Positions 3,901 through 49,986 of a DNA stretch of 64,000 nt are shown one piece after another (the first letter of the stretch is position 1; every line of letters starts with the position of its first letter). This DNA is from a virus. The notes below the pieces were generated by a model. The model searched no databases. It saw only the letters and a list, made by a program, of their open reading frames with translations, and was not told where the DNA came from. The position numbers were made by a program, and so were the translations under genes. The stretch is from IMG/VR virus record IMGVR_UViG_3300023235_000014. One strand, written 5' to 3'.

Positions 3901-4034
3901 AAAGAAACAACACGAACGTTGACCGTGATAACAACAAGGTCAATGTTCGAATCGTCCTTGTACCAACCAGAGCAGTTGAGTTTATCGCTGTTGACTTCAT
4001 CATCACTCGCAGTGGAGTACAGTTCGCCAGCTAA
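954..4034 (+). CDS. Tail sheath protein, gp18-like (paralog A, 1026 aa)
   Basis: N-terminal 'GTPAGVIGGSERGPAFVP' and C-terminal 'PWFAPAGFNRASLDF' match the T4 gp18 sheath motifs ('GPAF', 'WMSPAGYNRG'). RBS AAAGGAAC 7 nt upstream of the ATG. Confidence 0.85.
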   Translation: MASQIFNFPGFFDREIDLSAREESPTGTPAGVIGGSERGPAFVPYTVGSFADYRTIFGDLNTRYAAPYAADKFLANRSALTFIRILNAGANETSTDIDTTRTQGTVKNAGFIISGAAEVPGNEAVAQGVVQFIVANHYVSGNEAYGLPMFTDNDSFATGSDGAWNGYANLVRGVIFCASGTRMQILSHDQYYSETSDDAATPSDTTRYFKIAISSSLGTSFGNDEGFDGVRIFTASLNPTEDNYFAKLLNTDPERFADERHLVYADYAVDAEIATLESGIDSVAIASGSASTSSTSGDSSLPFLNAFGRFDTRYTAPKSPWFISQPYGETEHDLFYIEAIDDGAYANSRIKVSILDIQKSANPKDKYGTFNLVVRDFFDTDVEPRILEQFSNMTLNPDSDNYIGKVIGDKKARFNFDAADVSDRRLLTTGKFANRSRNVRVVISDQVAKKAVPADAVPFGFRGVEVLNTNSALVDTTGSAATDRLYLRSTGTLDTHGRLLGAIVPPIPHRYKVTRGATDTDGSRLAGAPGTTEITDGRYYWGVKFTRNSNALNPNVVELENKLIKSMTKFAGISKLDMLVTGSQKDTFNNNKFTLARVALGNGALADITSSVNKHMKETVYFRNGRPDGFEYKIIDPMTDDSRITFATLYQKGATASDFNKFTNFTKFTTFLYGGFDGTNILDKNAATFNDRSTSAETRTSDGEIGNAAATFTSPGLASNVNGAGISNSTVASYRAASDIVTDAIASNVNIVATPGQRDPLVTDYVSDAVRDFGIAFYVMDIPLYDSDIERIWDDETSKYVDVEQTANSFELRALDNEYAGAYFPDVVIEDIVNRRRVTVPSTVGAIAALGFNDRIAYPWFAPAGFNRASLDFVTKTKVKIKQPERERLFAIHVNPITKFPGTAANVIFAQNTLEQAESALGSINVVRMLNELKRQIIDIGNRTIWEQITPTIYTELEKSFRNVLNTITSRAGIERYDVVVDERNNTNVDRDNNKVNVRIVLVPTRAVEFIAVDFIITRSGVQFAS

Positions 4035-4075
4035 CGCAAAACGGTACCTGTGTCATATACTAACTCTATGCCCAA

Positions 4076-5068
4076 ATGTGGTTAACAATGGAGTTAGAAA
4101 TGAAGAAAGAGTTCAAGGGGCACGCCAATGAAGGTGGCGTGTACCAAATCACAAATATAATCAACGGAAAAAAGTACGTTGGTTCTGCTAAAACATTCAA
4201 GACTAGAGCAGCTGGCCACGCCAGCTCGTTAAAGAACGGCAAACACCAAAACAAGCATCTGCAAGCAAGCTTCGACAAGCATGGCGCAGATGCTTTTTTG
4301 TTTGAGGTAATTGAAGTTGTTCCTGGCGACAGAGTCGCCAGGACAACAAGGGAGCAAGAGTTAATTGACGAACAACTTGGGAGTTGGGAGTCGTGCTTCA
4401 ATTTCAAAAAGAAAACGGTCTGCAAGGAAGGCCCGTGGTCAAAAACTCCGACGGAAACTCGGAAGAAAATATCCGAGTCAAGTAGGAAGATGTGGCAAAA
4501 CGATATTTTCAAAAAAAGAACCAGTAAGGCAATTAGCAAAGCTTTGCAAACACCAGAATCTAAAAAGTGTCGTTCAGAGAATTCCAAGGAAATGTGGCGC
4601 AAGCCTTCACACAGACAAAAACTTGCAAAAGTAATGAGAAAACATTCGACCAAACAAAAACTGACCTTGGCTAAGCATAGAAAAACAGCAACTGCAAATT
4701 CACGCAAAAAACGTGTAAAACATTATGGAAAAATTCTTGATCCGCTGGGCAGGATTCACGACGTAACAAACCTGGAAGAGTTTGCACGGAAGCACAATCT
4801 CGACCGATGCAACTTGCAGAAGGTATTTGAAGGCAGACATCCGTCATGCAAGGGTTGGCGAAAGTACGCTTTAGAACTTTGTGGGCTGCCGTACATACGG
4901 AACTTGAGCCATCAGGCAAAAGACTTTTTGATTGTCGACCCTCGTGGAAACACACACAAAGAAACAAACATCGCCCGCTTCGCCGCAAAACATGGGCTCA
5001 ATAAAGAAAATTTGGCAGCGGTAATAAGAGGCACTCGCAAGTCCCACAAAGGATGGACGCATGTTTAA
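4076..5068 (+). CDS. GIY-YIG homing endonuclease with NUMOD3-like repeats. The likely true start is the ATG at 4100, which is preceded by GGAG
   Basis: 'GGVYQITNIINGKKYVGSAKTFKTRAAGH...FEVIEVV' is a GIY-YIG core with conserved Arg/His/Glu. It is followed by repeated 'K.ISES.RK.WQN'-type basic helices. Inserted between the two sheath paralogs. Confidence 0.8.
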   Translation: MWLTMELEMKKEFKGHANEGGVYQITNIINGKKYVGSAKTFKTRAAGHASSLKNGKHQNKHLQASFDKHGADAFLFEVIEVVPGDRVARTTREQELIDEQLGSWESCFNFKKKTVCKEGPWSKTPTETRKKISESSRKMWQNDIFKKRTSKAISKALQTPESKKCRSENSKEMWRKPSHRQKLAKVMRKHSTKQKLTLAKHRKTATANSRKKRVKHYGKILDPLGRIHDVTNLEEFARKHNLDRCNLQKVFEGRHPSCKGWRKYALELCGLPYIRNLSHQAKDFLIVDPRGNTHKETNIARFAAKHGLNKENLAAVIRGTRKSHKGWTHV

Positions 5069-5165
5069 CAACACAGTTCTACCTATTTACTCGTTGTGTA
5101 GGATATAAGATGAGACGACCCAATAGTTACTTATCAGAGATTAGCAACCTAATCGGAGAGAATTC

Positions 5166-8100
5166 ATGACTACCATCAATTTCAAAAGCGCAGGTGTATC
5201 TGCCCGTGTTATTAACCTGACTGGCCCAACCGCCGTTCAACCAGTCGGTATTCCAGCTGGCGTTATTGGAACATCAGTAAAGGGACCTGCGTTTGTACCA
5301 ACTACTGTTGCAACCACTCAGGACTTTACCGTGGTCTTTGGAGCGCCAGCTGACGGTGCTGTCAACGGACCATTGGCGGTAGGTGAGTGGCTTCGTAATC
5401 AACAGGCCGCAACCTTCCTGCGTGTTCTTGGTGTAGGCCAGGCTAGACGTCGAGAGACTTCGGGCGATAACCAAGGTCGAGTTGTTGGTGCGGGTTTTGT
5501 CGTTGGTGGCAGGCAGCCATCTACTGATGGCGCCTTGGTTGATAATGCTTACGCAAACACAGGTGGACCCGAAGGACGTCTTTACTTTCTGAATGCATTT
5601 ATGTCCGAGGCAAACAGCTCTGGGCTTCTTACTTCTGCTGGCCTTTCAAGTGACGGCGTTCCGCTTGTTCGTGCTGTCCTAATGGCAGCTTCTGGAGTAA
5701 TTCTTCGACTTTCCTCTTCGATAACTGGAGTTGCCTCGACCGCTCCTGCTGCATCATTAGTCTCAACTGAGGCTACCGTTACTGGTACCATGCTAGGTGC
5801 AATAAATTTAAATGGCGGTCGTCAAGAATTTGTCCTTTTCCTAAATGGTCACAAGGGCTCGGATGTACTATACCCTCGTGTTATCACGGCATCTCTTGAC
5901 ATCGAAGCACCAAACTACCTTGGCCGTGTGCTAAACACCGACCCTCTCCTTATGGAGAAGGCGGGCCACGTACTTTACGCAGATTGGTCTGTCCACTCCA
6001 ACCTTGCAGTTGTGACTTCTTCAAATGCAGTATCAACTTTTGCAAGTGGCGTAAATCCAAGCATCGCTGTTGGTGTTGAGCCAGCTATTTTCCTTGCGAC
6101 TGGCTCTAATGCCAGAAACTCGGGTTCGGTCGTGGCCCCAAGTTTCGAAAACTTTGAAGACCGCTTCAAGACGCCCAAGTCTCCCTGGATCGTGTCACAG
6201 AAGTTTGGTGGCAAGCCTAAGAACCTTATCCGTATCCATACACTGAGCGATGGTGCCTACGAGAATGAACAAATCAAGTGGTCTATCGAGAACTTGACTC
6301 CATCCGTTTCAGACGCACAGCCTTACGGTACATTTGACCTACTTGTTCGTCGTTTCGACGACACTGACAAAAGGCGTGAAGTAACCGAAGCCTGGAGGAA
6401 CCTGTCTCTTAACCCAAGCTCAGACAACTATGTTGCACGAGTTATTGGTGACACACACGTGTTCTACAACTTCGAATCTGCCGAGGGTTCACAGAAGATT
6501 ACAGAAAATGGCGAATACCCTAACCGTTCTAGCCTGATCCGTGTTGAAGTCTCTAACCTTGTAGACAACCAAGAGGTTGATGACTCAGCCCTTCCAATGG
6601 GTTTCCGTGGAATCCCCCACTTGGTTACTTCGGGTACAACAGCCCTAGCACCACTTACTAGCGCCACCGCTTTTGATGGTATCTTTAGCTCTAGCGCTGA
6701 GCCTGCATACAACGTAGTGCAGATGCCAGTTCAGTTCCGTGACAACCTAAACATAGGCTCGTCGGCAGCCCAACGACCAGACAAGGGATTGTACTGGGGC
6801 ATTCAGTTTGAGCGCAAACTTACTGTGGCTGAGTCTAACTCGACCACCGAACCCGAGCGAAGCATCGCCGCCTTTACACGTTACTTCCCAGACTTCCAAA
6901 CAGCCTGGCAGAGTGTGCTCGTTTCTAATAACGAGGGTGTGGCTGACGTTTCAGGTTCGGTTTTGGATGCTGACCGCTTCAACAACAATCTGTTTACTCT
7001 TGAGAACGTCAGGATTGTTCAGACAGCTGCTGGTTTGGCTGACACTGTGTCTCTTGTTAGTTGGAGCTACATGAGACAAGGGAATATCACCACCAACAGC
7101 ACCTGGAGACCGCTCGCTTCGTCCGACCTTACAGACGCATCTGTACGTCAGGTAGCTAAGTTTAGTGGCATTATTCAAGGTGGTTTCGACGGTGTGCGTA
7201 TCTTTGATGAAGATACCTCTGATATTACCAACAAGGCAATCACCGAAGAGATGAACAACTCAAATCGTGGTACATCTGACGGTCCATCTGTCAAGTCTTA
7301 CGCAACTGCTCTTGAGATTATGTCTGATGATACAGAAACTGACATTCAGCTTCTTGCTATCCCAGGCATCCGTCACCCAATCATTACAGATAACGCTACT
7401 CTCAAGACTGAAGACCGCTTTGATGCCATGTACCTCATGGACATTGAGGAGTATGACACGCTCAATGCTCCATTTACAGGTTCAAGTGAACAAGACTTGT
7501 CGGTTCGTTTCACCGCAAACAACCATAGTGCTCGTGGCCTGAACTCTTCATTCGCTGCTGCGTACTTCCCTGACCTCATCGTACGAGACGCATTCAACAA
7601 CACTATCCGTCAGGTTCCACCGTCGGTAGCTGTTCTCGGTGCATTTGCACTCAATGATTCCATTGGATTCCCATGGTACGCACCAGCAGGTTTCGCCCGT
7701 GGCGCCCTACAGACAACTGAAGAGGCTTTCATCCCGCTTAACCGTGACAACATGAATGCCTTGCAGGATGTCAAAGTCAACCCGCTTGTTTCCTTTGCAG
7801 GTTCAGAAGGTGTAGTTGTCTGGGGTCAGCGCACTCTCCTCGGCAAGGACTCAGCTCTTGAGCGTGTAAATGTTCGTAGACTGCTTATCAGCCTTCGTCG
7901 ACAAGTCCGCCAGGTCGCCCGTCGCTTCATCTTCGAGCCAGGCCGTGAAGAAACCCTTGCAAGGTTTTCACAGCTTGTAAATCCAATCATGAAGAGGGTC
8001 CAAGACCAGAAGGGTGTTGAGCGCTTCTTGGTGAGAATCGATACCACAACCACCACTCAAACGGACGTTGAAAACCGTACCATTCGTGGTCAGATTTTCC

Positions 8101-8180
8101 TTGTCCCAACCAAGACCCTTGAGTTCTTGTCCATTGATTTCGTTGTAACCAACCAGGGTAACTTCGTCACCAGCGTATAG
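5166..8180 (+). CDS. Tail sheath protein, gp18-like (paralog B, 1004 aa)
   Basis: 'GIPAGVIGTSVKGPAFVP' and 'PWYAPAGFARGALQ' match sheath motifs. Collinear similarity to paralog A throughout, e.g. 'FKTPKSPWIVSQ' vs 'YTAPKSPWFISQ'. RBS GGAGAG. Confidence 0.85.
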   Translation: MTTINFKSAGVSARVINLTGPTAVQPVGIPAGVIGTSVKGPAFVPTTVATTQDFTVVFGAPADGAVNGPLAVGEWLRNQQAATFLRVLGVGQARRRETSGDNQGRVVGAGFVVGGRQPSTDGALVDNAYANTGGPEGRLYFLNAFMSEANSSGLLTSAGLSSDGVPLVRAVLMAASGVILRLSSSITGVASTAPAASLVSTEATVTGTMLGAINLNGGRQEFVLFLNGHKGSDVLYPRVITASLDIEAPNYLGRVLNTDPLLMEKAGHVLYADWSVHSNLAVVTSSNAVSTFASGVNPSIAVGVEPAIFLATGSNARNSGSVVAPSFENFEDRFKTPKSPWIVSQKFGGKPKNLIRIHTLSDGAYENEQIKWSIENLTPSVSDAQPYGTFDLLVRRFDDTDKRREVTEAWRNLSLNPSSDNYVARVIGDTHVFYNFESAEGSQKITENGEYPNRSSLIRVEVSNLVDNQEVDDSALPMGFRGIPHLVTSGTTALAPLTSATAFDGIFSSSAEPAYNVVQMPVQFRDNLNIGSSAAQRPDKGLYWGIQFERKLTVAESNSTTEPERSIAAFTRYFPDFQTAWQSVLVSNNEGVADVSGSVLDADRFNNNLFTLENVRIVQTAAGLADTVSLVSWSYMRQGNITTNSTWRPLASSDLTDASVRQVAKFSGIIQGGFDGVRIFDEDTSDITNKAITEEMNNSNRGTSDGPSVKSYATALEIMSDDTETDIQLLAIPGIRHPIITDNATLKTEDRFDAMYLMDIEEYDTLNAPFTGSSEQDLSVRFTANNHSARGLNSSFAAAYFPDLIVRDAFNNTIRQVPPSVAVLGAFALNDSIGFPWYAPAGFARGALQTTEEAFIPLNRDNMNALQDVKVNPLVSFAGSEGVVVWGQRTLLGKDSALERVNVRRLLISLRRQVRQVARRFIFEPGREETLARFSQLVNPIMKRVQDQKGVERFLVRIDTTTTTQTDVENRTIRGQIFLVPTKTLEFLSIDFVVTNQGNFVTSV

Positions 8181-8201
8181 GTCCAAACCTAAAGGAAATC
8201 C

Positions 8202-9455
8202 GTGAAGCTCACGAAAGTTCAACTAAAAGAGATGATTCGTCAGGCTGTTAGGCAACAGCTTGGCGAGTCGCCAATTGAAGAAACAGTATATATTGGTTCA
8301 ATCAAAAAGGGCATGGCGGCTGGAAAGGCTGCTGCGAACCGTGTTGATAGTCCTTCATACCGTTCTTCAAAAGGCGAAACCTGGGAAGAAGAGCTTGGCC
8401 GCATAGACAAGCAAGCTAAACTTAAAAGGGACATGGAACGACGATTTGCCTCCGCAGGTAAGTACTGGAAGAAGGTATTTGGTGAGGAGGCTAATGTTTA
8501 CTACATGCAAGCCCAAATTGATGTCGGCGGCCCATTTAGGGTGAATATCAAACTAGAAGAACGTGATTCTTTTGCCGAACAAATCTTTGTAGTGAGCCTA
8601 CTGAAAACAACCCAGACACTTGAAACGAAAGACTTCGGCATCGGCATCGGGGCCAAAGAAAATATCGCCCGCTACGTCAAGAAAATGAAGAAGAAGTTTC
8701 AACAGGGTGGACTAAGCGAAGGTCATATGGCTAAAAGCCTAAGGCTTATACTTAGAGAAAATGAAAACAGACCTATGAAAGTTAACAAAAGACAGTTACA
8801 AGAGATGGTTCGTTTGGCTATCCGCAAGCAGCTAAACGAGCGCCACGGCGTTTATTCCCCTGATGGCGGAATGTCTCAGAATGATATCGCAATCCACTTG
8901 GAAAAAGAACGTGAAAAGAAGCGTAAAAGTGATGACGTCAACAAGAAACGCCAGGCTACCAAGAAATCTGCTCGGGGCATGGAACTTGAATGCGGTCCAG
9001 ACATGGACCGTAGGCCCGACAGGAATAAAGAACCACGTAAGCTATCGGATTTATTTGCAGACGGCGACAGAGAGCTAGGAGAGGCCATGTACGAGCAATC
9101 TGGTGGTACCATGGATGACTTCTGTTCAGCTTATATTGAAGCAGCTCTTTGGAGCAGCACAGATGATTCAAGTGGCCAGCCTTTAGACGTGAACTACGAA
9201 TCTGCTGACATCTCCGAAGAGACTCTTAGAAAAATGCAATCTGATTGCGACAAGTTTCAGGAGCTTGCAGGTGAAATGATTGATGGGCGTGAAGAGAGGG
9301 CTGGACACGATTTCTGGCTAACCCGCAATGGACATGGTTCTGGCTTTGCTGATGGACAGTGGCCTGAATACGAAAAAGAGTTAACAGAACTTTCAAAAAA
9401 GTTTGGTGAGACATGGCTCATCGTTGGCGATAATAATGAAATTGAAGGAATGTAA
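8202..9455 (+). CDS. Putative internal head/packaged protein with two tandem modules, each beginning with the type-A propeptide (GTG start)
   Basis: N-terminal 'MKLTKVQLKEMIRQAVRQQLGE' and internal 'MKVNKRQLQEMVRLAIRKQLNE' (near nt 8777). RBS AAAGGAAA before the GTG. Confidence 0.6.
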   Translation: MKLTKVQLKEMIRQAVRQQLGESPIEETVYIGSIKKGMAAGKAAANRVDSPSYRSSKGETWEEELGRIDKQAKLKRDMERRFASAGKYWKKVFGEEANVYYMQAQIDVGGPFRVNIKLEERDSFAEQIFVVSLLKTTQTLETKDFGIGIGAKENIARYVKKMKKKFQQGGLSEGHMAKSLRLILRENENRPMKVNKRQLQEMVRLAIRKQLNERHGVYSPDGGMSQNDIAIHLEKEREKKRKSDDVNKKRQATKKSARGMELECGPDMDRRPDRNKEPRKLSDLFADGDRELGEAMYEQSGGTMDDFCSAYIEAALWSSTDDSSGQPLDVNYESADISEETLRKMQSDCDKFQELAGEMIDGREERAGHDFWLTRNGHGSGFADGQWPEYEKELTELSKKFGETWLIVGDNNEIEGM

Positions 9456-9457
9456 AA

Positions 9458-10125
9458 TGAATTTTGAACTAATATTGAAAGAGGGATTTGACACTGATGA
9501 TTCGGTTGTCAGGGAGCTGAAGATCTTCATCGACAATGATGGTGAGCTTTACCGTCAGCGCACAATGCCCATTATGAAGAACCTCGCACGAAAAATGCGA
9601 AAGGGCAACTACGATCCAAGCAAGGCAACCAAACTCTGGATGTACCTTGTAAATGATGGTGCCAAAAAATACGCCAAGGAATTTGGCGGCGATCCTAAGG
9701 GCTGGCATGAAATGTTCCCAAAGGCAATTCGTATGGCTGTAGCTCAAGAACTAGCTGATGAATTTCAAAGTGAGGTTGACGCTGGCGGGTACGATGTTGA
9801 GGAACTCTCAATGAGGGAAAACAAAGTTGTTCGTGTCTCAAAAAGTCAACTAAGAGAAATGGTCCGCAAGACTATCCGCAAACAGCTCAATGAGGCTGCT
9901 GGGTCCCGTGAGTGGGACTTACTTGAGAAAATTCGTGATGGTGGTGCAGATGACACCTCCATCCTTGAGGAACTCATGAGAGCCATGTCTTCAGTCGAAG
10001 CTACTCAAAACCTTGAGTGGATTGCACAAATGTGGGATGTCGAACTTGAGGGTGATGATGATGGCGAAGATGAAGCTTGGATGGAAGACGACGACCTTGA
10101 TGAGATCGTTGCTCCAGATTGGTAG
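9458..10125 (+). CDS. Putative packaged protein with an internal type-A propeptide; acidic C-terminus
   Basis: ATG at 9458 preceded by GAAGGAA. The ORF finder's start at 9403 overlaps the upstream gene. Internal 'VRVSKSQLREMVRKTIRKQLNEA'. Confidence 0.5.
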
Positions 10126-10131
10126 GAAAAT

Positions 10132-10566
10132 ATGAAAGTTGCTAAAAATCAACTTATACGAATGATTCGTGAGGCAGTTCGAGAGCAGCTAGACCCAAAC
10201 GATTCAGATGACAGGGGCGCTGTCCTGGCCAACTTACGCAGACGGCTTGATGGAGGTTCGAAGCTGCATGCTATCGGAGACGGGACATCGGACAACATTT
10301 ACGGGCTTGTGAAGGCCAACTCCTCTGATGAGGCTAGGACAGTAGCTCGTGAGGCTGGACTTGATGATTATGCAGTTGACGAGGTCAACAGCAACGTAGT
10401 CAGACGTCTTGAGAAGCAAGCTGCAAGCTATGCCAGGCGTCGCCAAGAGAGAAAAGCTGCCAAGTATACCAAAGATGCCAAATTAATTCAGGGGTTCTTG
10501 GATTCTGACAAAAACACCATTGACCTCGGCAACAGACCAATCATGACGGTTGACCTTGATCTCTGA
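10132..10566 (+). CDS. Putative packaged protein with type-A N-terminal propeptide
   Basis: 'MKVAKNQLIRMIREAVREQLDP'. Confidence 0.55.
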   Translation: MKVAKNQLIRMIREAVREQLDPNDSDDRGAVLANLRRRLDGGSKLHAIGDGTSDNIYGLVKANSSDEARTVAREAGLDDYAVDEVNSNVVRRLEKQAASYARRRQERKAAKYTKDAKLIQGFLDSDKNTIDLGNRPIMTVDLDL

Positions 10567-10574
10567 GATTTAAT

Positions 10575-10802
10575 GTGAAACTCACTAAAACACAATTGAA
10601 AGAGATGATCAAAGAGGCTGTGCAGAGTCAGCTTGATGAATCGGGAATTCTTGAACGTCGTGTTATGAAGCTTGATCGGTTTCGTAGTGAAGTAAATCTC
10701 TCTTCATATGAGCTTCTGGAGGATATCGTTGAAATGCTTGATGAGGACATGTGGCGTCAGGTAGTTATTGGTTTAAAAGACAAGTACGGATACAAGATCT
10801 GA
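10575..10802 (+). CDS. Small putative packaged protein with type-A propeptide (GTG start)
   Basis: 'MKLTKTQLKEMIKEAVQSQLDE'. Confidence 0.5.
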   Translation: MKLTKTQLKEMIKEAVQSQLDESGILERRVMKLDRFRSEVNLSSYELLEDIVEMLDEDMWRQVVIGLKDKYGYKI

Positions 10803-10859
10803 AAACGCCTTTTAGGTCCCTAATTTACTATAGGGGAAGTCGTTGCAACCAGGAATAAG

Positions 10860-11366
10860 ATGAAACTCAACAAAACACAACTCAAAAAAATCCTCAAAGA
10901 GGTAGTACGTGAACTAGTAGACGAGGGTGCGTTTGATAACGTTATTAAAGAAAGTGTTAGTCCAAGAGCTAATGTTGCCCGTCGACCTGCTGCAAATGAC
11001 TTTGCTGCCTCGTACGGACAAAGAAGTGAACCGATGAGCAATGATCATAGTGAGAGACAACAGGATAGTCTACGTGGTCAGGGCAGCAAGAATACACGAC
11101 TCCAAGAGTTAACCCGCCGAGCAGCAGCAGAAGCATCTGGTGGTGACCCACAACAAGCTAAAATGATGGAAGCGATTTTCGCTGACACAGCCGCCAGTAC
11201 ACTTCAGCGGCAATTAGGTTACGAAAGCCATGGCTCAGCGGGGCTTTATAGCGGAGAACCAGACCCAGAGCAAGAACGCCAAGACATGGCAGCTTTGGAC
11301 GTACTTAGTGGTGGAAAAGGCGCACAACATTGGGCTGCATTAGCATTTGGTAAGTACAATCAGTAG
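10860..11366 (+). CDS. Putative packaged protein with type-A propeptide
   Basis: 'MKLNKTQLKKILKEVVRELVDE'. RBS AGGAATAAG. Confidence 0.55.
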   Translation: MKLNKTQLKKILKEVVRELVDEGAFDNVIKESVSPRANVARRPAANDFAASYGQRSEPMSNDHSERQQDSLRGQGSKNTRLQELTRRAAAEASGGDPQQAKMMEAIFADTAASTLQRQLGYESHGSAGLYSGEPDPEQERQDMAALDVLSGGKGAQHWAALAFGKYNQ

Positions 11367-11413
11367 GAACTCAATAGTTCTACATATTTACTACCAAGAA
11401 GGAAGGTTCAATA

Positions 11414-11911
11414 ATGCCAACACACAAACAACTAGTAGTAGAAGTACCAAGCACCACACGTGCTAACGGTTCTTCTGACACAGAAGCACGCAAGACTTCA
11501 TACCCAGGGTCCCCACTTTACAACAATCTGGGCGGCGCTCCGTCATACCTAACAGACGCAGCAGTCGAGACGTTCTTTGAGGGCGAGGTTATCGAAGGCG
11601 TGGTAGATGATGGCGGTCACACCTTTGGAACATTCAATCGTGATTACGCTGACGCACCAAATCTTGAAGAAGTTGTAACTGGTGGTGGTGGACTTCCTGG
11701 CTCCCCATACGCCCCTAACGTTGCGTCTCCACCCGAGGGACAAAACCCAGCAGACATCCCAGCTGAGGGTGCTGCCGTAACTGTGGCTGCACGAGGCGGC
11801 GGCGGACCTTTCCAGGGAAGCACGCTTACAAGCCCACACGAGACATCCGTGAATGTTGCTCGCCAGAAGATTGGCACGCTCATGTTCGGTAACTCAGAAC
11901 CAACAGCCTAA
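11414..11911 (+). CDS. Hypothetical Gly/Pro-rich protein
   Basis: ORF with RBS GAAGGAAGG. No recognisable domain. Confidence 0.4.
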   Translation: MPTHKQLVVEVPSTTRANGSSDTEARKTSYPGSPLYNNLGGAPSYLTDAAVETFFEGEVIEGVVDDGGHTFGTFNRDYADAPNLEEVVTGGGGLPGSPYAPNVASPPEGQNPADIPAEGAAVTVAARGGGGPFQGSTLTSPHETSVNVARQKIGTLMFGNSEPTA

Positions 11912-11930
11912 ACCTAATAAGGAATAACAA

Positions 11931-14135
11931 ATGACAGACCTGTTTACAGAAGCGCTGAAAGACGCACAAAAGATCCGTGAGATTGCTGAGAAGGACGCCA
12001 AAAACCGTCTTGTAGAGGCTCTTACGCCTTACATCAAGAAGGTGATCGCTAAGGAATCAGTTGGTGACAGTGACTTCTACTTTGAGCAGGTTGAGGACGA
12101 TGAGCTTGACCTAGAAGCACAGCAACCTGCGCCTGCGGCTCAGCCAGCCCCAGCCCAAGGTGCACCAGCACCAGCACCAACCACAGCTCCAACCGCAACT
12201 GTTCCAACTGCCGACCCAGCTCCTATCGAGGACCCTGGGGCGCTTGGGGATGTTGGTGTGGACGCAAGTATGCCTGATGAAGAGGGTAAAATCGTTGTTG
12301 ACTTCGATGACCTTTTCGTTGATGCAGATACCGATCAAGTAACCATTACACCACCAGGTGCTGGTGGTGAAGAAATGGGTGCGGCGCCCGTGGCAGCAAC
12401 TGGCGAAGAGCCTATGCTTGACCTCGCACCAGAAGGCTCTGAGCTTGCTCCTGCCCCAGCAGGCGAAGCAGTTCCTGTCGAAGGTGAAGAGGAAGACCCA
12501 CTTGACCTTTCAACAGAAGCAATTACTTTCAAGGAGTATCAGAGAGTTCTATCAGATCTTTCTGAACGAGTTGATAGAGCACTTTATTCCAATCACGTGA
12601 CAGATATTACACGTGAATCGCTTAAACAAAGACTTTTCGACCTATTGGAGGCCATTGATGGCATGCGTGGTCGTGGAAGCATTTCAAACAAACAAGCTCG
12701 TCTCAACGAAAACAAGTTGGAATTTTTGTTCTTAAAACTGAAAGAGGCGAGTTTGCACAATAGTTACTCATTGAGTAGCGAAACAAAAGGTACCAACAAC
12801 ATGAAGACTCTCAAAGAATATGCAGCACAGCTTTTCGAGGAAGACGAAAACCTCGCAAAAGATTCGGCCAGCACTGGCGACAGCGGCATGCCAGTAGATG
12901 ACGAATACTCTGAGCATGCAGCTGACGTCTCTGGTGTTGATCCAAAACTTGGAAAACCAGAAGACATCAGGGTCCACCAGGACCGACACACTCAAGAGGC
13001 AGATGCCCTTGAGGACACTGACAATCCCGAGGAAATGCCCTGGGATGAAGGTGAGCCTGGCTTAAAAGAAAATAGTGCAGACGCAGACACCGATGCAAAC
13101 GATGACGTAGCAGAGGGTGCAGCTGGATTTGGTGACACAAGAGAAGAACCAACAGCTGAGTTTGAAGTCGACGACGCAGAACTTGCGGAAGCAGTACGCT
13201 CCATCCGCAAAGATAGTATCAAGAAGAAATTGGCCGCTCTCCGTGAGGCAGAGGACAAGGACAAGGCATTCGAAGTTGATGCATCAGAAGATTACCCAGA
13301 TCCTGGCCCAGAAGGCGGTGAGGATCCTTCACATGAGCACCTAAAGGAGGGCGCAGGAATGATGGAAATGGACATGGACGGCGATGAAGAGCTTGAAGTA
13401 GTTGACGACATGGCACTTGACAGTGACCTAGACGATGCAGCTGACCTCGTACTTTCCGTAGACCTCCCACCTGAGGTGGAAGCAGAACTAGCTGAACTTG
13501 GTCTTGATGACCTTGATGTTGATGTCACCCTCAACGTTAGCTCCGATGATGAGCTTGATGATGAGCTTGATGATGAGCTTGATGATGAGCTTGATGATGA
13601 GCTTGATGATGAGCTTGATGATGAGCTTGATGATGAGGAGGACGAAGTTCTCCAGGATGACATGGAAGAAATGGCAATGGAGAGTAAGAGATCAGCACAC
13701 AGAGCACGCTTTCTTGAAAAGAAGCTTCGTCGTGCCAAAAAGATTCTTGAGGCCAAGAACAGAGAACTAGCATCCGTGAAGGGCCAGTTGGTAGAGACCA
13801 ACCTCTTCACCAGCAAGGCTGTGTACTACAGCAAGTTCCTTCACAGGGCTCTAAACGAAAGTGCTCTTACCAAGAAGGCTCTACAGCAAATTGTTGAGCA
13901 CCTTGATAGGGGTCGTACGGTTGCCGAAACAAAGGCAATCTACAAAAAGATTGAGCGCAAGCTCAACGAACACAATAACAAAGCTTCCCGCAAATTGGGC
14001 GGATCATCCTCGACGGTTACTCGACCAGGGAGCGCAAGCTTGAATGAGAGCAAGAACTCTTCTTCAGGCGAACATCCAGAAACTCAAACAGCTTCTCGTT
14101 GGCAGGTACTTGCTGGCATTAAAAAGGGCGAGTAA
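11931..14135 (+). CDS. Prohead scaffold/core-like protein (gp22-like by position). Very acidic, with a Pro/Ala-rich linker and an (ELDD)n repeat
   Basis: 734 aa, extremely acidic and helical, with an 'APAPAQ' low-complexity stretch and eight ELDD repeats. Lies immediately upstream of the gp23-like MCP, matching the T4 gene 22 to 23 order. Confidence 0.5.
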   Translation: MTDLFTEALKDAQKIREIAEKDAKNRLVEALTPYIKKVIAKESVGDSDFYFEQVEDDELDLEAQQPAPAAQPAPAQGAPAPAPTTAPTATVPTADPAPIEDPGALGDVGVDASMPDEEGKIVVDFDDLFVDADTDQVTITPPGAGGEEMGAAPVAATGEEPMLDLAPEGSELAPAPAGEAVPVEGEEEDPLDLSTEAITFKEYQRVLSDLSERVDRALYSNHVTDITRESLKQRLFDLLEAIDGMRGRGSISNKQARLNENKLEFLFLKLKEASLHNSYSLSSETKGTNNMKTLKEYAAQLFEEDENLAKDSASTGDSGMPVDDEYSEHAADVSGVDPKLGKPEDIRVHQDRHTQEADALEDTDNPEEMPWDEGEPGLKENSADADTDANDDVAEGAAGFGDTREEPTAEFEVDDAELAEAVRSIRKDSIKKKLAALREAEDKDKAFEVDASEDYPDPGPEGGEDPSHEHLKEGAGMMEMDMDGDEELEVVDDMALDSDLDDAADLVLSVDLPPEVEAELAELGLDDLDVDVTLNVSSDDELDDELDDELDDELDDELDDELDDELDDEEDEVLQDDMEEMAMESKRSAHRARFLEKKLRRAKKILEAKNRELASVKGQLVETNLFTSKAVYYSKFLHRALNESALTKKALQQIVEHLDRGRTVAETKAIYKKIERKLNEHNNKASRKLGGSSSTVTRPGSASLNESKNSSSGEHPETQTASRWQVLAGIKKGE
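13545..13652 (+). repeat. Coding tandem repeat: 8 copies of the 12-nt unit gatgatgagctt, plus one degenerate unit
   Basis: Perfect 12-nt tandem units visible directly. They encode (DDEL)n inside the scaffold-like gene. Confidence 0.9.
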
Positions 14136-14188
14136 CGGAAAATAGCTTTTAGCAAAATACTTAGAAAAGATTTGAGGAGAAAAATCAA

Positions 14189-16111
14189 ATGAAGACTTTC
14201 ACACTGTCACAGCTCGCAGAGGGCGTAAAAAGACGTTCCCTTGGCGCAGACTCACCACGTCTGTCCAAGAAATGGAACGCCACAGGACTCCTAGAGGGCC
14301 TAAAGGGAATGAACCGAGATAACATGTCTCGTCTACTTGAGAACCAGGCAGCTGAGTTGCTCAAGGAGACAAACGCATTGTCCCTCGGAGGAGCTTCCCT
14401 AACCTCTAGCGGAAAAATCGCTGGTTTCACCAACGTCGCTTTCCCAATCGTACGCCGTGTATTCGCAGGCTTGATTGCAAATGAAGTTGTATCGGTTCAG
14501 CCAATGAGCCTACCAACTGGTTTGCTTTTCTACCTCGATTACACTTATGGTTCATCGGTTGGTGGAGACGCAGGTACATCAGCGAACCAGTTCTCAACCA
14601 CATCCGTGGTTAGCCCATCAACTTACACGAGTCAGGACTCCGTATACAACAACCCACGTGGTGTTGGCGTACGTTCAGGTTCTCTCGCAACTGGTGGCCA
14701 GTACGACCTTGCAGGTCATGGCTACTCGAAGGTGCACAAGCAGAGCCGTTGGCTCTCAGGTTCCGCAGCATCTGTCGGCTACTGGGCAACTGGTTCCGTA
14801 TGGACCGCAGGCGCAGCCGTAGCTACTTCCGCAGACTTCACAGGCTTCAATGCTCGTTACGCAATGTACGATGCAAACGTTGAACGTGATCTCGCAGATA
14901 ACCTTTTGGACTACTCGTTCGCATTCGTGCCAACATCTGAGTTCACTGGCAAAATCACTGGTACCGACCTTACCAACGTCAACCAAATCAGTATAACTGG
15001 TTTCGGTAGTGTTACCAACTCCGCAGTGGAGTGGGGCGAGAAGTACCAGGGTGGACGTGGCGTCCTCAACCTACGCAAGCTAACGCAGCGTGGTGATTGG
15101 GATGTTGCCAATGGTGTCTTTACACCAAGCCCACTCGGTGGTTCACACCTTATGTTCGTTGTGCGTCTTGGTAACGCAGGTACCCCACCAGCTCCAGATG
15201 GCACTGTGGGTAACGCAGTAACTGCTTCCGCAGCTATCGCTGACGCACTTTCGGTCAACACTGACGGTTCAACCCTTACCATCCCAAGCTTCGAGTCTGA
15301 CTTCGCAGTCGATTCTAGCCCACGAATCCCAGAGGTTGATATCCGAATCGAATCCACCAGCGTAACGGCTCAGACCCGTAAGCTGCGTGCTCGTTGGTCG
15401 CCAGAAATGGCTCAGGACCTTACGGCCTTCTACTCAATCGATGTAGAAGTCGAGCTTACGAACATTCTCTCTGAGATGATCACACTCGACATTGACCGTG
15501 AGATTTTGAACGACCTTCTCACACAGGCAGGTGCTGCTAACCTCTTCTGGAGCCGTGCTCCAGGTAAGATTGTGAACAAGTTCACAGGCGCAGAGGCTCT
15601 ACAGTCCAGCACCCTATCCCCAGGCCCAATGGCATTCGTAAACATCCAGGAGTGGTACCAGACTCTGCTTGAGACCATCACTGATGCTGCGAACACCATC
15701 CACCGTAAGACACTCCGTGGTTCAGGTAACTTCATGGTTACCAGCCCAGATGTCTGCACCATCCTTGAGCACCTAGTTGCATACAAGCCTTCCTACAGAG
15801 TAGACGCTGACGGACAGGTTCGTGACAACATGGTAATCGGCGCCGAGGCAGTTGGTACCCTTAACAACCGTTACACGGTTTACAAGGACCCTTACTTCCC
15901 AAGCAACAAGGTTCTAGTTGGCCTAAAGGGCAACACCTTCCTTGAATCAGGATACATCTACGCTCCGTACGTACCACTTATCCTTACTCCTGTCATCTAT
16001 GCACAGGAAGATTTCACGCCACGTAAGGGTGTCATGACTCGTTACGGCAAGAAGATGGTTAGAAATGACTTTTATGCAACCGTGACAGTTCTAGACATGG
16101 GTCTCATCTGA
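14189..16111 (+). CDS. Major capsid protein, T4 gp23-like, with an N-terminal propeptide
   Basis: 'FPIVRRVFAGLIANEVVSVQPMSLPTGLLFYLDYTYG' vs T4 'AVMGMVRRAIPNLIAFDICGVQPMNSPTGQVFALRAVYG'. 'TRKLRARWSPEMAQDL' vs 'SRQLKAAYSIELAQDL'. C-terminal 'YIYAPYVPL' vs 'GIYYAPYVAL'. RBS GAGGAG. Confidence 0.9.
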   Translation: MKTFTLSQLAEGVKRRSLGADSPRLSKKWNATGLLEGLKGMNRDNMSRLLENQAAELLKETNALSLGGASLTSSGKIAGFTNVAFPIVRRVFAGLIANEVVSVQPMSLPTGLLFYLDYTYGSSVGGDAGTSANQFSTTSVVSPSTYTSQDSVYNNPRGVGVRSGSLATGGQYDLAGHGYSKVHKQSRWLSGSAASVGYWATGSVWTAGAAVATSADFTGFNARYAMYDANVERDLADNLLDYSFAFVPTSEFTGKITGTDLTNVNQISITGFGSVTNSAVEWGEKYQGGRGVLNLRKLTQRGDWDVANGVFTPSPLGGSHLMFVVRLGNAGTPPAPDGTVGNAVTASAAIADALSVNTDGSTLTIPSFESDFAVDSSPRIPEVDIRIESTSVTAQTRKLRARWSPEMAQDLTAFYSIDVEVELTNILSEMITLDIDREILNDLLTQAGAANLFWSRAPGKIVNKFTGAEALQSSTLSPGPMAFVNIQEWYQTLLETITDAANTIHRKTLRGSGNFMVTSPDVCTILEHLVAYKPSYRVDADGQVRDNMVIGAEAVGTLNNRYTVYKDPYFPSNKVLVGLKGNTFLESGYIYAPYVPLILTPVIYAQEDFTPRKGVMTRYGKKMVRNDFYATVTVLDMGLI

Positions 16112-16310: not shown

Positions 16311-17768
16311 ATGCGCTGTCAAGTCTGCAATAAGGATTTTGAATCCAAGAGAAGGTTAGCGAGCCATCTACAAAAAAAGCATAGCATGGATTCATGTACG
16401 TACACATCAAAATATTTGTGTGAGAATTCCCGAACACCTGTTTGTGCCTTTGAGGACTGCAAACAAGAACCCAGATACGTTTCTTTTACGTTCAAAAGAT
16501 TTTGCAAGGAGCATTCCAAACATGCAATGAAAAGTGGGGGGCGCCGTGGGGGGCAAGCTCAGGCTTGGAATAAAGGGAAAACAAAATTCGACGACAAAAG
16601 AATACTCAAGCAAGCAATCTCAATGTTAGGAAACGGGAATCACTTTTATGGCCAACAACACTCTAACCAAACGATTGAAACACTAAAGATTAGTTCGAAA
16701 ATTACCCAGGGTGAATTCAAAGCCAGGCTAAAGGCTAGAGAGTCGGATTTCATCATCTCAACAAATTTTTCATACGAAGAATATGAATCTAGGCAATACC
16801 AAAAATTGCCAGTTGAGTGTACCAGGTGTCACCGCACCTCCTACAAAACGCTTCAGTCCCTAGAGCGTGGAACCCTTTGTAAGTTTTGCTACCCTTTCAC
16901 AGTCTCAAGAGGCGAACTAGAACTTGGCAATTACGTTGAGTCTAAAATTGACCATGACGTTGTTAGAAACGATCGGACTGTCATTGCACCTTATGAGCTG
17001 GATATTTATGTCCCTAAATTGCACTTGGCAATTGAATACCACGGAGTTTATTGGCATATGGACAAAGGCCAGCCTGGGTTTGACAAGAAGCTCCACTACA
17101 AGAAGCACCTGCACGCTAAAAACAAAGGAATCAAACTTCTTCAATTTTACTCTAATCAATGGGAGCAACAATCCGAGCTTGTAAAGTCAATGATTGATAA
17201 CCAACTGGGACTTAATGCGAAAAAGGTGGGAGCCAGGACCTTGCAAATAACAATGCTTGATTCGAAAGCAGCAAAAGCTTTTTTCACTAAAAATCATTTA
17301 CACGGATGGTGCAGAGCAAAAGCCACGTTTGCCCTAACTGACAAAGAAACAAACGAAGTACTTTCTGCGCTGTCGCTACGAAGCCCGATGCATAAGGTCT
17401 ACAAAGATTCTTTGGAAATTGCCAGGTTCGCTACTAGGATGAACACTACGGTAGTAGGAGGCTTTAGTAAACTACTGTCATGTGTCAAAAAGTATACTAA
17501 GAGTCAACAGCTCCATACTATCATCTCGTACGCAGACTTATTACATGGGACAGGCCGAGTTTACGATTTAGCCGGCTTTGACTATGTCAAACACACGGGT
17601 ATCAATTATTGGTACACAGACGGCGTTCAGCTCTTCAACCGTTTCAGGTATAAAGCCGAGGCAAACAAGAGTGAGAAGGAAGTTGCTAAAGCACAGAACG
17701 TCCAGCGTATATACGGATGTGGTAACTCACTTTACAAACTAGCTCTAAAGGTAGAAGACGATGCATGA
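16311..17768 (+). CDS. Homing-endonuclease-like protein: N-terminal C2H2 zinc finger(s), NUMOD-like segment, and a Vsr-like PD-(D/E)xK nuclease domain
   Basis: 'CQVCNKDFESKRRLASHLQKKH' (C2H2). 'YELDIYVPKLHLAIEYHGVYWH' resembles the Vsr 'PD...AIFVDGCFWH' catalytic motif. Confidence 0.5.
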   Translation: MRCQVCNKDFESKRRLASHLQKKHSMDSCTYTSKYLCENSRTPVCAFEDCKQEPRYVSFTFKRFCKEHSKHAMKSGGRRGGQAQAWNKGKTKFDDKRILKQAISMLGNGNHFYGQQHSNQTIETLKISSKITQGEFKARLKARESDFIISTNFSYEEYESRQYQKLPVECTRCHRTSYKTLQSLERGTLCKFCYPFTVSRGELELGNYVESKIDHDVVRNDRTVIAPYELDIYVPKLHLAIEYHGVYWHMDKGQPGFDKKLHYKKHLHAKNKGIKLLQFYSNQWEQQSELVKSMIDNQLGLNAKKVGARTLQITMLDSKAAKAFFTKNHLHGWCRAKATFALTDKETNEVLSALSLRSPMHKVYKDSLEIARFATRMNTTVVGGFSKLLSCVKKYTKSQQLHTIISYADLLHGTGRVYDLAGFDYVKHTGINYWYTDGVQLFNRFRYKAEANKSEKEVAKAQNVQRIYGCGNSLYKLALKVEDDA

Positions 17769-19806
17769 TGAAATTCTAGTCAACACCCCATTTAACAAAC
17801 ACGTATATCTGACGGGAGATAAGAAAGTTGTCTGCCGACTTTGTGAAATTCAGGCTGTCCTCTCCAACTCCAAACGATCAATTGGTAGTCACTTCGGATT
17901 TCACCACAAAGAAATTGTTGAATCCACTCGGAAAGTAATTGTGTTCACAGTTAAATGCTTGGAGTGTAAGGAGCTAGTGGCAAACTCCAACAACGTTCTT
18001 GGGAGACACGTTCGCAAAGAACATGGTATGTCTTTTGAAGATTACGAGATTAAATGGTTGTTTCAGGGCGTACGACCAAAGTGTTCAGCCTGTGAGCTGC
18101 CCCTCAAGAGGCGCAAAGGCGGCTTCCCAACCTTCTGCTCAATCAAATGTGGTGCTATCGGTATCAACAACCCAATGTGGGGCAAGAAAGGTGCAGACAG
18201 CCCAAACACCGGCAAAGTCCGCTCACAAGAGCATCGTGAGAATTATAGCAAGGCGGCCCATAAGCGGTACAAGGAGAATCCAGAGCTTATCAACCAGCGT
18301 CGCAAAGAAACTATCGCCAGGCTTGAACGGGGTGAGTTCAATCGCAGTGGAAGTTTTGTTACAACCAACCCAATTACTGGCAAGCAAGAACGTTTTGACA
18401 GCACCTGGGAACATCAGTTTGTCATACTCCATAGAGACAACTACAGCGATCTTACTAAGACACATAAGATCCGCATTCCCTACACGTCGACTTTAGATGG
18501 CCGTGAACATGTTTACATCCCTGACTTTGTTTCCGAAAACAAAAAAGAGGTTGTAGAAATTAAAGGGAGGTTCAAAGAAAAAACTGCGGACAAGATTGAT
18601 GCAGCGAAAGAGTGGTCGAAAGCAAACGGATATGTCTATCGTGTGTTCACTTGTGGCTCAAGCAAAACATTGTTTGAGGTTGATGTCTCGGGTATGCTTT
18701 ACGGAGATACAGGCGCAGTTCCATACGGCGGAACTAAAATGTTGCGCTGGCAAGACCGAAACCTCTCTTCAGCCTTAGTTGAGAAGATGCCCGTCGAAGA
18801 AAAAGAAGAGGTGGCCAAGAATGTGTTTGCCTTCTACAAAGAGAACGGCTTTCCTTATATCCTTCATGAAGAGCAAACCCTAAAAAAGGAATGGGCAAAA
18901 CTACAAAAAGAAACTCTTGTTCCCAAACAAGAAGAAGGGTTTACTTTTTTACCCAATAAGCAGACGGCTGGCAACAAGCTTACACAACATTTCAATTCCA
19001 GACAATTCTACACTGTGAAAGACAATGGTAGGAATAGCAAATCTATGATTGAAGCTTTCAGCGATGATGACATTTTGCTAAAAGTCATTAGAAACCGTTT
19101 GAATATTACCTATAAGGAAACCTTCAATATACATGGGGCAATGCTTAGACAGGGCTTCAGGTCCACTAGGATGGCTGCTGTGACCTCTACTTTCAACTGC
19201 CTTGTGGCCAAACACATCTACACAGAACTGACTCCAAACGATGGCATTGTATTTGATTTCTCAGCTGGCTTCGGTCACCGAATGCTTGGAGCACTCGCAA
19301 GTTCAAATAACCTGAAGTATGTTGCTTGTGATCCATGGACAGAGGTAGTGGAAAACAACAAGCGAATGGCAAAGTTCATTGGTGCAAAAGACCGAGCAAA
19401 GATTTGGAACGTCGGGTCAGAAGTGTGGGTCCCGCCCAAAGCTCTTTTGGGAACGGTAGACCTAGCCTTCTCCAGTCCTCCCTATTTCGACAAAGAAGTG
19501 TATGACAACGGGGAAAATGGTCAGGCATACGGGAATAGGACATTTGAGGAATTCACTAGTGAATGGTGGAAGCCGACTCTCAGAACCATTATAACCCTAT
19601 TGAAGCCCGAAGGAAAACTCGCAATCAACATGGTTGAGCCAATGATAGACGATTTGCTGAAGATTGCCCAGGAAATGGGGTTCAAAGAGTCACACAGATA
19701 CCATCTACAAATGAGTAGAAGTCATTTTGAAAAAGCTAAAAAGCTTGGTGATAGAGCCAAAGGCTCATTCAAGGCTGAGCCAATTATTGTTCTTCATAGG
19801 AGATAA
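17761..19806 (+). CDS. Fusion protein: N-terminal Zn-finger plus nuclease-like domain, and a C-terminal DNA (N6-adenine/N4-cytosine) methyltransferase
   Basis: 'CRLCEIQ...GSHFGFHHKE' (Zn finger). 'HVYIPDFVSENKKEVVEIKGRF' (PD-(D/E)xK-like). MTase motif I 'FDFSAGFGHRMLG' and motif IV 'SPPY'. Confidence 0.6.
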   Translation: MHDEILVNTPFNKHVYLTGDKKVVCRLCEIQAVLSNSKRSIGSHFGFHHKEIVESTRKVIVFTVKCLECKELVANSNNVLGRHVRKEHGMSFEDYEIKWLFQGVRPKCSACELPLKRRKGGFPTFCSIKCGAIGINNPMWGKKGADSPNTGKVRSQEHRENYSKAAHKRYKENPELINQRRKETIARLERGEFNRSGSFVTTNPITGKQERFDSTWEHQFVILHRDNYSDLTKTHKIRIPYTSTLDGREHVYIPDFVSENKKEVVEIKGRFKEKTADKIDAAKEWSKANGYVYRVFTCGSSKTLFEVDVSGMLYGDTGAVPYGGTKMLRWQDRNLSSALVEKMPVEEKEEVAKNVFAFYKENGFPYILHEEQTLKKEWAKLQKETLVPKQEEGFTFLPNKQTAGNKLTQHFNSRQFYTVKDNGRNSKSMIEAFSDDDILLKVIRNRLNITYKETFNIHGAMLRQGFRSTRMAAVTSTFNCLVAKHIYTELTPNDGIVFDFSAGFGHRMLGALASSNNLKYVACDPWTEVVENNKRMAKFIGAKDRAKIWNVGSEVWVPPKALLGTVDLAFSSPPYFDKEVYDNGENGQAYGNRTFEEFTSEWWKPTLRTIITLLKPEGKLAINMVEPMIDDLLKIAQEMGFKESHRYHLQMSRSHFEKAKKLGDRAKGSFKAEPIIVLHRR

Positions 19807-49136: not shown

Positions 49137-49538
49137 ATGAAAATAACAAGCAAACAACTCAAAGAGATGATTCGCAAGGCTGTCCGTGAGCAACTAAGCG
49201 AACAGGCACCTGTGTGGGGCTCACAAAATACACCAAAAGGCCTGGCGGGCTTCGCTGGGAAGACAAGCACACAGACTTTTCAGTCCAATGCAGAAAAAGC
49301 TAAAAAGACTGCCGCACAAAAGGCAGCTGAAAAACAAGCAGGTACTGGTGAGGACTTTGGATCGGACAAGACTTTACCTAAGGGTAAGGTTGGGGCTGCC
49401 AATCGCAAAAAGCTTGAGCAATCCAAGAAGTTGCAAAATTTAAAGAAACAAGTGTACTATGAAATTGATCAAGCTAGCACAGACCCTGAGAAGTTGCAGG
49501 CAGTACTTGATTACCTCCGAAAGGACCAGGCCAACTAA
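49137..49538 (+). CDS. Lys-rich protein with type-A propeptide
   Basis: 'MKITSKQLKEMIRKAVREQLSE'. Confidence 0.55.
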   Translation: MKITSKQLKEMIRKAVREQLSEQAPVWGSQNTPKGLAGFAGKTSTQTFQSNAEKAKKTAAQKAAEKQAGTGEDFGSDKTLPKGKVGAANRKKLEQSKKLQNLKKQVYYEIDQASTDPEKLQAVLDYLRKDQAN

Positions 49539-49720: not shown

Positions 49721-49986
49721 AGTTCTTCGATACGGACCCTAAGCGCATCAGCGAGATACTCGGCTCCAGCATACCAAGCTTCATCAGCCGTCTCACTTAA
49801 AACTTCTGCAAGCACTGCTGTTAGTTCTTCAAGGATTTGTTTCTTGGGCATGACATCTTGTTGTGGGCCTTCAGGCGGTCCAATGTTTGGCAGTTTATCT
49901 GCATCGATCAAACTTGGGACTCCCAGACTGCCCTCATTCAAGAGTCCAGCTAATCTTCTCCAGCGTTCCTTGGAAAACCTAGTCAT
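49717..49986 (-). CDS. Small protein with type-B propeptide
   Basis: 'MTRFSKERWRRLAGLLNE'. Confidence 0.5.
   Translation of the reverse strand: MTRFSKERWRRLAGLLNEGSLGVPSLIDADKLPNIGPPEGPQQDVMPKKQILEELTAVLAEVLSETADEAWYAGAEYLADALRVRIEEL

Follow-up and report, generated by a model that had tools for sequence, protein, structure and literature searches.

In bacteriophage T4, the prohead protease gp21 cuts on the C-terminal side of the Glu residue in L/I-X-E motifs and also cleaves itself, at the motif LLIE9|T; an Asp at P1 blocks processing (PMC9026906). It removes the 65-residue N terminus of gp23, the phage's major capsid protein (PMC9958956). The mature T4 gp23 chain in the Protein Data Bank (PDB) consists of 456 amino acids (aa), which is the 521-aa precursor minus 65, and the HMMER offsets differ by the same 65 residues. 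In the T4 proteins IPI, IPII, and IPIII, the capsid targeting sequences (CTS) are N-terminal propeptides of 10 to 19 residues that gp21 cuts after L/I-x-E, whereas the head propeptides of phages phiKZ, 201phi2-1, and SPN3US are cut after S/A-x-E by gp21-related proteases at several redundant sites each; fusion and packaging have been studied experimentally with T4 IPIII (PMC9026906). Here we describe a 64,000-nucleotide (nt) stretch of viral DNA, IMG/VR virus record IMGVR_UViG_3300023235_000014 (referred to below as the window), which encodes a capsid protein of the Gp23 family. Comparison with T4 and with relatives from metagenomes suggests, with a probability of about 0.7, that residues 1 to 60 of this protein are a T4-type propeptide with a predicted cut at E60|T61. 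The features on which this reading is based are as follows.

14189..16111, plus strand: major capsid protein gene, Gp23 family, 640 aa (Pfam, PHROG, and PDB chains of T4 gp23)
14174..14179, plus strand: Shine-Dalgarno sequence GAGGAG, 9 nt 5' of the capsid ATG at 14189 (read from the sequence)
14189..14368, plus strand: predicted propeptide, capsid residues 1 to 60, which aligns with T4 gp23 residues 1 to 65
14213..14221, plus strand: site 1, L9-A10-E11, within a clade-specific N-terminal extension; absent from T4 and from Microcystis phage Mel-JY01
14288..14296, plus strand: site 2, L34-L35-E36, within GLLEG; homologous to T4 L16-L17-E18-G
14333..14341, plus strand: site 3, L49-L50-E51, part of the conserved LLENQ motif; homologous to T4 I36-F37-E38-N-Q
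14360..14368, plus strand: site 4, L58-K59-E60, with the maturation cut predicted at E60|T61; placed by MAFFT on T4 L63-T64-E65|A66

The product of the open reading frame (ORF) at 14189-16111 (+) matches the Pfam Gp23 model (PF07068) with an E value of 1.6e-79 and a score of 268.5 bits (cut-off, 24.4), and it matches PHROG 138 (major head protein) with an E value of 1.3e-73. In phmmer searches, it aligns with the T4 gp23 chains 8t9r, 8gmo, 6uzc, and 5vf3 (E value of ~2e-28; aligned stretches 72-123 and 351-621). Residues 1 to 70, encoded by 14189-14400, read MKTFTLSQLAEGVKRRSLGADSPRLSKKWNATGLLEGLKGMNRDNMSRLLENQAAELLKETNALSLGGAS, exactly as they had been quoted in a preliminary description of this DNA. 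In that description, the segment was said to look like a gp23-style propeptide, and the family assignment, the motif-by-motif alignment, and the conservation of the boundary site set out below support this.

A MAFFT alignment of nine proteins (the window capsid protein, five clade relatives, Flavobacterium phage immuto, Mel-JY01, and T4) reveals the same order of motifs in the window capsid protein and in T4 gp23, namely, KW..LLEG, (L/I)(L/F)ENQ, a variable linker, and a boundary (L/I)-x-E. The T4 sequence F-L-T-E65|A falls on L-L-K-E60|T of the window protein, and this column contains [LIVM]-x-E in all nine rows. Further downstream, the HMMER alignment pairs T72 of the window protein with Q83 of T4. 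The predicted mature N terminus is T61 (TNALSLGGAS...), with TNALSLGGASLTSSGK as the corresponding semi-specific peptide.

The boundary site is retained throughout the clade. A protein search together with 79 IMG/VR loci yielded 195 N termini of 53 to 93% identity, 164 of them distinct, and site 4 is (L/I)-x-E in 164 of 164 (162 scored by a script and two, LRE and LNE, by eye). In the lineages that have an insertion after ENQ (L114, L116-L119, L143, and L150), LKG, LRG, or LKD stands in place of the old LKE, and a new FLNE, MLNE, VLQE, or VLME is found directly before the conserved "xNxLSxGG" block. This turnover, with the motif kept at the predicted mature start, is as expected for selection acting there, and it represents the strongest sequence evidence for a functional cut. 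The other sites are less uniform. The Glu of site 1 is replaced by Q, A, or S in 26 of the 164 distinct relatives (16%; LAQ, LAA, LAS, and others) and that of site 2 in 34% of them (LLR in 45, LLD in 7, LLK in 2, and MLN in 1). The idea that all four tripeptides are equivalent cut sites was rejected in view of this replaceability of E11 and E36. Thus, of the "several L-x-E sites" noted in the preliminary description, all four are present in this sequence, but only one or two appear to be selected as such.

It is unlikely, though it is the best of the alternatives, that the propeptide is removed by a cut at another Glu, namely, E51, E56, or one downstream of E60. The E51 site is as conserved within the clade as site 4, being invariant in the 164-sequence set, and it matches T4 I36-F-E38; in addition, an ungapped extrapolation of the HMMER alignment from its anchor (query residue 72 = T4 residue 83) would put query residue 55 opposite T4 A66. 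However, E51 is replaced by Q in L149 and in Mel-JY01, whereas the boundary site has no exception, and only the boundary site has been regenerated after the insertions. E56 is preceded by A-A and not by L/I. Finally, the conserved block after E60 (xNxLSxGG...SSG...FPIVRR) is followed without a break by the region aligned with the N-terminal part that is ordered in mature T4 gp23.

The segment in question is evidently translated from its first codon. The capsid start is shared by nine relatives, each with a GGAG-type site upstream, and in codons 1 to 60 these nine relatives show 240 synonymous versus 118 nonsynonymous codon differences. The synonymous excess, the conserved start, and the shared GGAG-type site indicate that codons 1 to 60 are translated and under purifying selection. 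An internal start at Met41 or Met46 in place of the ATG at 14189 was rejected in view of the strong Shine-Dalgarno sequence, the conservation of the start, and the twofold excess of synonymous differences.

Metagenomes contain more than 6,500 homologues of this capsid family; the closest 120 are 71 to 100% identical to the window protein, and some of the contigs reach 343 kb. A search for near-identical DNA among GenBank phages gave no match to the window. At the protein level, the capsid protein has its best match among these phages in a 484-kb metagenomic phage that lacks annotation (36.6% identity); next come Flavobacterium phage immuto, Microcystis phage Mel-JY01, and Rhodothermus phage RM378. 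The source of the window is an uncultured huge phage of a large clade (250 kb and more). The genes of the window are also found on an ENA contig of 284,850 bp (ERZ27315719, k141_17111), where they occupy ~62.8 to 126.8 kb.

The density of L-x-E in residues 1 to 60 exceeds chance. Four of the five Glu residues in this segment have Leu at position -2, and at least four L-x-E tripeptides arose in only 0.35% of 20,000 shuffles of residues 2 to 60 (P = 0.0035). The remaining 580 residues contain two L-x-E tripeptides, or five when I-x-E is counted. Against composition-preserving shuffles, L/I-x-E is enriched in the capsid protein as a whole (9 observed versus 3.2 expected) and in the putative scaffold protein encoded directly upstream (20 observed versus 11.6 expected; P = 0.006). 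It is also overrepresented in the leader-bearing proteins encoded at 8202, 9403, and 10575 (see below) and is not overrepresented in the tail sheaths or endonucleases.

11931..14135, plus strand: gp22-like scaffold protein with acidic repeats, 734 aa, encoded immediately upstream of the capsid gene (assigned by its position and by 33 to 36% identity to the scaffold of five relatives)

The N terminus of this scaffold protein resembles those of the pre-capsid proteins of immuto and Mel-JY01, and phmmer finds no direct match between the ORF at 11931-14135 and T4 gp22.

A T4-type protease is encoded in the same lineage. The canonical head module of the relatives consists of Portal_T4, a protein of ~300 aa, Peptidase_S77, a leader protein, a protein of ~160 aa, the scaffold, and the capsid protein. 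The count of Peptidase_S77 (PF03420) was limited to the IMG/VR loci in which the capsid gene is preceded by 5.5 kb of sequence or more. In 46 of these 47 loci, the protease is found 3.5 to 9.8 kb upstream of the capsid gene, on the same strand; the sole exception is L105, the closest relative (86% identity). Six further relatives also carry the protease upstream of the capsid gene. The proteases of this lineage match T4 gp21 (PDB 5JBL) with an E value of 1.5e-14. Their catalytic residues His (GELDH) and Ser (GISSRALGS) are retained, and their starting sequence, KLLQE|L or KLLKE|F, aligns with the self-cleavage motif of T4 gp21.

In the window, this module has been rearranged. Synteny BLAST shows that the block encoding the leader protein, a 165-aa protein, the scaffold, and the capsid protein is retained, and that in front of it two tail-sheath genes and extra leader proteins replace the portal and the protease. 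A comparison of window positions 954-16111 with L012-L015, L023, and L184 shows the portal, the ~300-aa protein, and the protease to be split off from this block; this order is shared only by the closest relatives (at least 86% identity). No prohead protease, portal, or terminase was found in the window by phmmer searches with immuto, Mel-JY01, and T4 proteins, by a 120-sequence family HMM run with the filters off, or by Pfam searches of essentially all ORFs; the 10 kb upstream of the window contain none of these genes and one further leader protein. A sister phage with 93% identity has the same rearranged order and, in the same sample, also has a portal-295aa-Peptidase_S77-thioredoxin locus, located away from the capsid gene. 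The longest contig listed for the sister capsid protein and that listed for its protease are 343,198 bp each. The window phage presumably encodes a Peptidase_S77 with L/I-x-E specificity elsewhere in its genome. Four proteases were rejected as candidates for this role: P0202, P0199, and P0298 belong to other phages, and P0292 belongs to the 93% sister phage and not demonstrably to the window genome, its neighbours having no window homologue.

The two tail-sheath paralogues (1,026 and 1,004 aa; PHROG 23) flank a GIY-YIG homing endonuclease (954-4034, 4076-5068, and 5166-8180, all on the plus strand). The sister phage likewise has two sheath genes.

The proposed course of maturation follows that of T4. 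During prohead assembly, the mostly helical residues 1 to 60 would face a scaffolding core made of the gp22-like protein. After completion of the shell, Peptidase_S77, presumably encoded elsewhere beside the portal gene, would cut after Glu60 to yield a mature subunit that begins with T61. The invariant L49-L50-E51 might serve as a second cut that fragments the propeptide so that the pieces can leave the shell, and the lineage-variable L9-A-E11 and L34-L-E36 would be redundant sites at most. We infer the cleavage itself, its exact position, and the contact with the scaffold from these comparisons. The capsid protein was modelled with AlphaFold2 from an alignment of 42 sequences (73 to 93% identity). 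The model has helices at residues 6-17, 22-30, and 41-62, with a pLDDT of ~73 for residues 20 to 58 that falls after residue 59; it is poor (mean pLDDT, 50; pTM, 0.36) and was used only for the helix propensity of residues 6 to 62.

Several points weigh against a propeptide cut at E60. L-x-E is a short motif that arises easily in helical segments rich in Leu and Glu, and the L/I-x-E enrichment is soft evidence: an unrelated protein of the window, encoded at 32964-34337, is as enriched as the scaffold. T4 has 18 extra residues between ENQ and the cut, so that the alignment of the cut sites spans a gap. The AlphaFold2 model, with its low mean pLDDT, does not confirm on structural grounds the point at which the mature fold starts. 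The phage's own protease gene was found neither in the window nor in the 10 kb upstream, and the GenBank phage set includes no cultured member of the clade.

Some of these points would also suit a capsid protein whose N terminus stays uncleaved, with the L-x-E tripeptides a by-product of a conserved, Leu- and Glu-rich helix that is kept in the mature capsid. The motif is short, the enrichment extends to a non-head protein, and the entire N-terminal region is strongly conserved, so that conservation of the tripeptides is partly hitch-hiking. Such an outcome is nevertheless quite improbable. A T4-type protease is present in the head module of every adequately flanked relative outside the rearranged subclade, and within that subclade the sister phage has one as well. 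In T4 gp23, removal of the homologous segment is established (PMC9958956). Moreover, hitch-hiking does not account for a boundary site that turns over through insertions while an L-x-E is kept directly before the mature start.

A different kind of N-terminal element is found on other proteins of the window. The type-A leader, a 22-aa sequence of the form MKLTKxQLKEMIxxAVxxQLxE, is present in seven copies in the window and in one just upstream.

8202..10802, plus strand: block of extra type-A-leader proteins, with leaders that start at 8202, 10132, and 10575 (regular expression and HMM, 37 to 48 bits)
10860..11366, plus strand: ancestral type-A-leader protein, 168 aa (27 to 33% identity by BLAST to the post-protease gene of L012-L015 and L023)
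49137..49538, plus strand: another type-A-leader protein, 133 aa, far from the head module (HMM, 45 bits)

Ancestrally, the leader belongs to the conserved gene that lies downstream of the protease, and there it ends in ...E(L/I)(L/I)xE|G throughout the clade, where the consensus is MK[LM]T[KR]x[EQ][FL]Kx[ML][IL]KEC[LI]xE[LI][LI]xE|G. In the window, six of the seven copies end in (L/V)-x-E at positions 20 to 22, and the identity between the leader proteins drops from 54% up to position 22 to 7% beyond it. By analogy, the type-A leader looks like a T4-style capsid targeting sequence. The ORFs 8202-9455 (+) and 9403-10125 (+) each contain an internal type-A leader, at ~8775 (ATG) and ~9829 (GTT, which is no start codon), respectively, with no stop before it. 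They could encode polyprotein-like precursors cut at an internal L-x-E or could contain nested genes.

Two other N-terminal patterns resemble the leaders in their layout. The motif (K/R)R(W/L/F)QxLAG(I/L)(I/L)xE is found in nine copies, at 21713, 25591, 25964, 34556, 35829, 42884, 43602, and 43991 on the plus strand and at 49965 on the minus strand. Eight of the nine copies end in (I/L)-x-E, and protein identity falls from 59% to 8% right after the motif, which is probably another class of cleavable capsid-targeting leader. The third pattern is an amphipathic helix that ends in L-x-E and is followed by AP(E/A)DAPFGxYLWA; it is present in 28038-29234 (+), 34849-35598 (+), and L008:1105-1845.

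The preliminary description had likened the N terminus of the capsid protein to the type-A leader, a resemblance that direct comparison does not support. Both sequences start with MK, have Q-L-x-E around positions 7 to 11, and continue with a basic amphipathic stretch, and hhalign produces a 19-column alignment of leader positions 1-22 with capsid residues 2-20 (probability, 0.7%; P = 0.084). However, an HMM built from eight leader copies gives the capsid N terminus 0.2 bits, compared with 37 to 48 bits for every true copy, and nothing scores in between. With the profile alignment anchored at the N terminus, the score of the capsid protein is equalled or exceeded by those of more than 40 of the 288 other N termini (~15%; shuffle P = 0.12). 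At leader positions 20 to 22, the capsid protein has R-S-L-G-A, so that the terminal L-x-E of the leader corresponds to S-L-G-A, and conservation of the capsid protein continues well past residue 22. The leader of the relatives reads MKLTRGEFKMMIKEC... and has lost "QL.E", whereas their capsid N terminus stays MKxFTLSQLAEG; the two therefore do not covary. Also from the preliminary description came the statement that the capsid N terminus ties the leaders to the maturation protease. It is supported only indirectly, by the shared terminal (L/I/V)-x-E and by the T4-type Peptidase_S77 of the lineage; no protease gene was found in the window. Since the leaders end in L-x-E but the capsid N terminus is not detectably homologous to them, the link between leaders and protease rests on the shared motif.

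It is highly doubtful that the clade-specific first helix of the capsid protein (residues 1 to 20, MKxFTLSQLAEG...) and the type-A, type-B, and type-C leaders of ~20 accessory proteins dock on the same scaffold surface, are cut by the same L/I-x-E protease, and share an origin; the weak MK..QL.E similarity (P of ~0.1) is compatible with this but provides no positive support. If true, this would represent a much-expanded T4-style protein-packaging system in an uncultured clade. The least probable proposal, that residues ~1 to 22 are themselves a diverged type-A leader, i.e., a targeting sequence shared with the accessory proteins, is weakened by these scores, the absence of covariation, and the replacement of E11 in 16% of the relatives.

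Other parts of the window also deserve mention. Homing-endonuclease-like genes are dense around the capsid gene (16311-17768, 17761-19806, 22109-22882, and 30310-31257). The endonuclease-like set includes an HNH/Mom-like gene directly downstream of the capsid gene, a TnsA-like gene with a methylase domain, and an endonuclease VII-like gene; the N terminus encoded by ORF 30310-31257 is GIY-YIG-like by eye. In one relative, a 221-aa protein encoded just downstream of the capsid gene (L013:12851-13516) has homology to the C-terminal portion of the capsid protein (39% identity over 122 aa). It may be what is left of a vertex protein, or else a piece of a capsid protein, and it has no counterpart in the window. 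On the minus strand, the 912-aa product of 38184-40922 contains the shoulder domain of the Major Vault Protein (PF11978; E value of 6.7e-24, passing the cut-off) together with a weakly matching Vault_3 repeat, which is unusual for a phage. Also on the minus strand are a 706-aa actin-like Volactin (45392-47512; PF25216; E value of 7e-59), into which an intein carrying a LAGLIDADG domain is inserted, and a glutamine-synthetase-like protein (41012-42028; Gln-synt_C with an E value of 1e-18 and a weak Gln-synt_N).

An ordinary gp23-type propeptide is the expected state for any capsid protein of the Gp23 family. On its own, the one predicted here matters little, and the leader-bearing proteins around the capsid gene are the more unusual feature. 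The comparison nonetheless provides a precise and testable mature N terminus (T61) for a large clade of uncultured huge phages, which fixes the sequence to be used in structural modelling or metaproteomic searches. It also calibrates the protease motif of this lineage and supports the reading of the L/I-x-E-ending leaders as cleavable capsid-targeting propeptides. The pattern of site turnover is a clean evolutionary signature that could help predict maturation cuts in other uncultured T4-like phages.

Among the described systems, the propeptide of T4 gp23 is the closest. Both capsid proteins belong to the same family (PF07068) and have the same order of motifs, a gp22-like scaffold gene lies directly upstream in the window, and Peptidase_S77 is present in the lineage. 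The T4 propeptide, too, contains four L/I-x-E tripeptides (LLE18, LPE24, IFE38, and LTE65). In contrast to T4, the window capsid protein has a 24-residue clade-specific N-terminal extension with LAE11, a spacing of 7 rather than 25 residues between ENQ and the predicted cut, and a mature part that is ~120 residues longer owing to a larger insertion domain. The protease and portal genes of the window subclade are separate from the scaffold and capsid genes, and processing is here a prediction.

The CTS of T4 and the type-A and type-B leaders of the window are short N-terminal modules on unrelated proteins that end in (L/I/V)-x-E, which makes the CTS a functional analogue of the leaders. With the capsid propeptide, these modules share only the protease motif at their C-terminal edge. 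The window leaders, at 22 aa, are far more frequent than the CTS are in T4, and they have no sequence similarity to the T4 sequence MKTYQEFIAE.

Giant phages of the phiKZ type, with multi-motif propeptides and many processed head proteins, offer a parallel for secondary cuts at E51 and perhaps also at E11 and E36. Their capsid proteins belong to a different family, the P3 residue is S/A and not L/I, and their protease is only distantly related to T4 gp21, unlike the clear Peptidase_S77 of the window lineage. A more general parallel is the delta domain of HK97 gp5. It lies at the N terminus of a capsid protein with the HK97 fold, and the prohead protease removes it once the shell has assembled. 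The HK97 delta domain (~100 aa) is itself the scaffold, whereas the window encodes a separate scaffold of 734 aa and its propeptide is short, as in T4.

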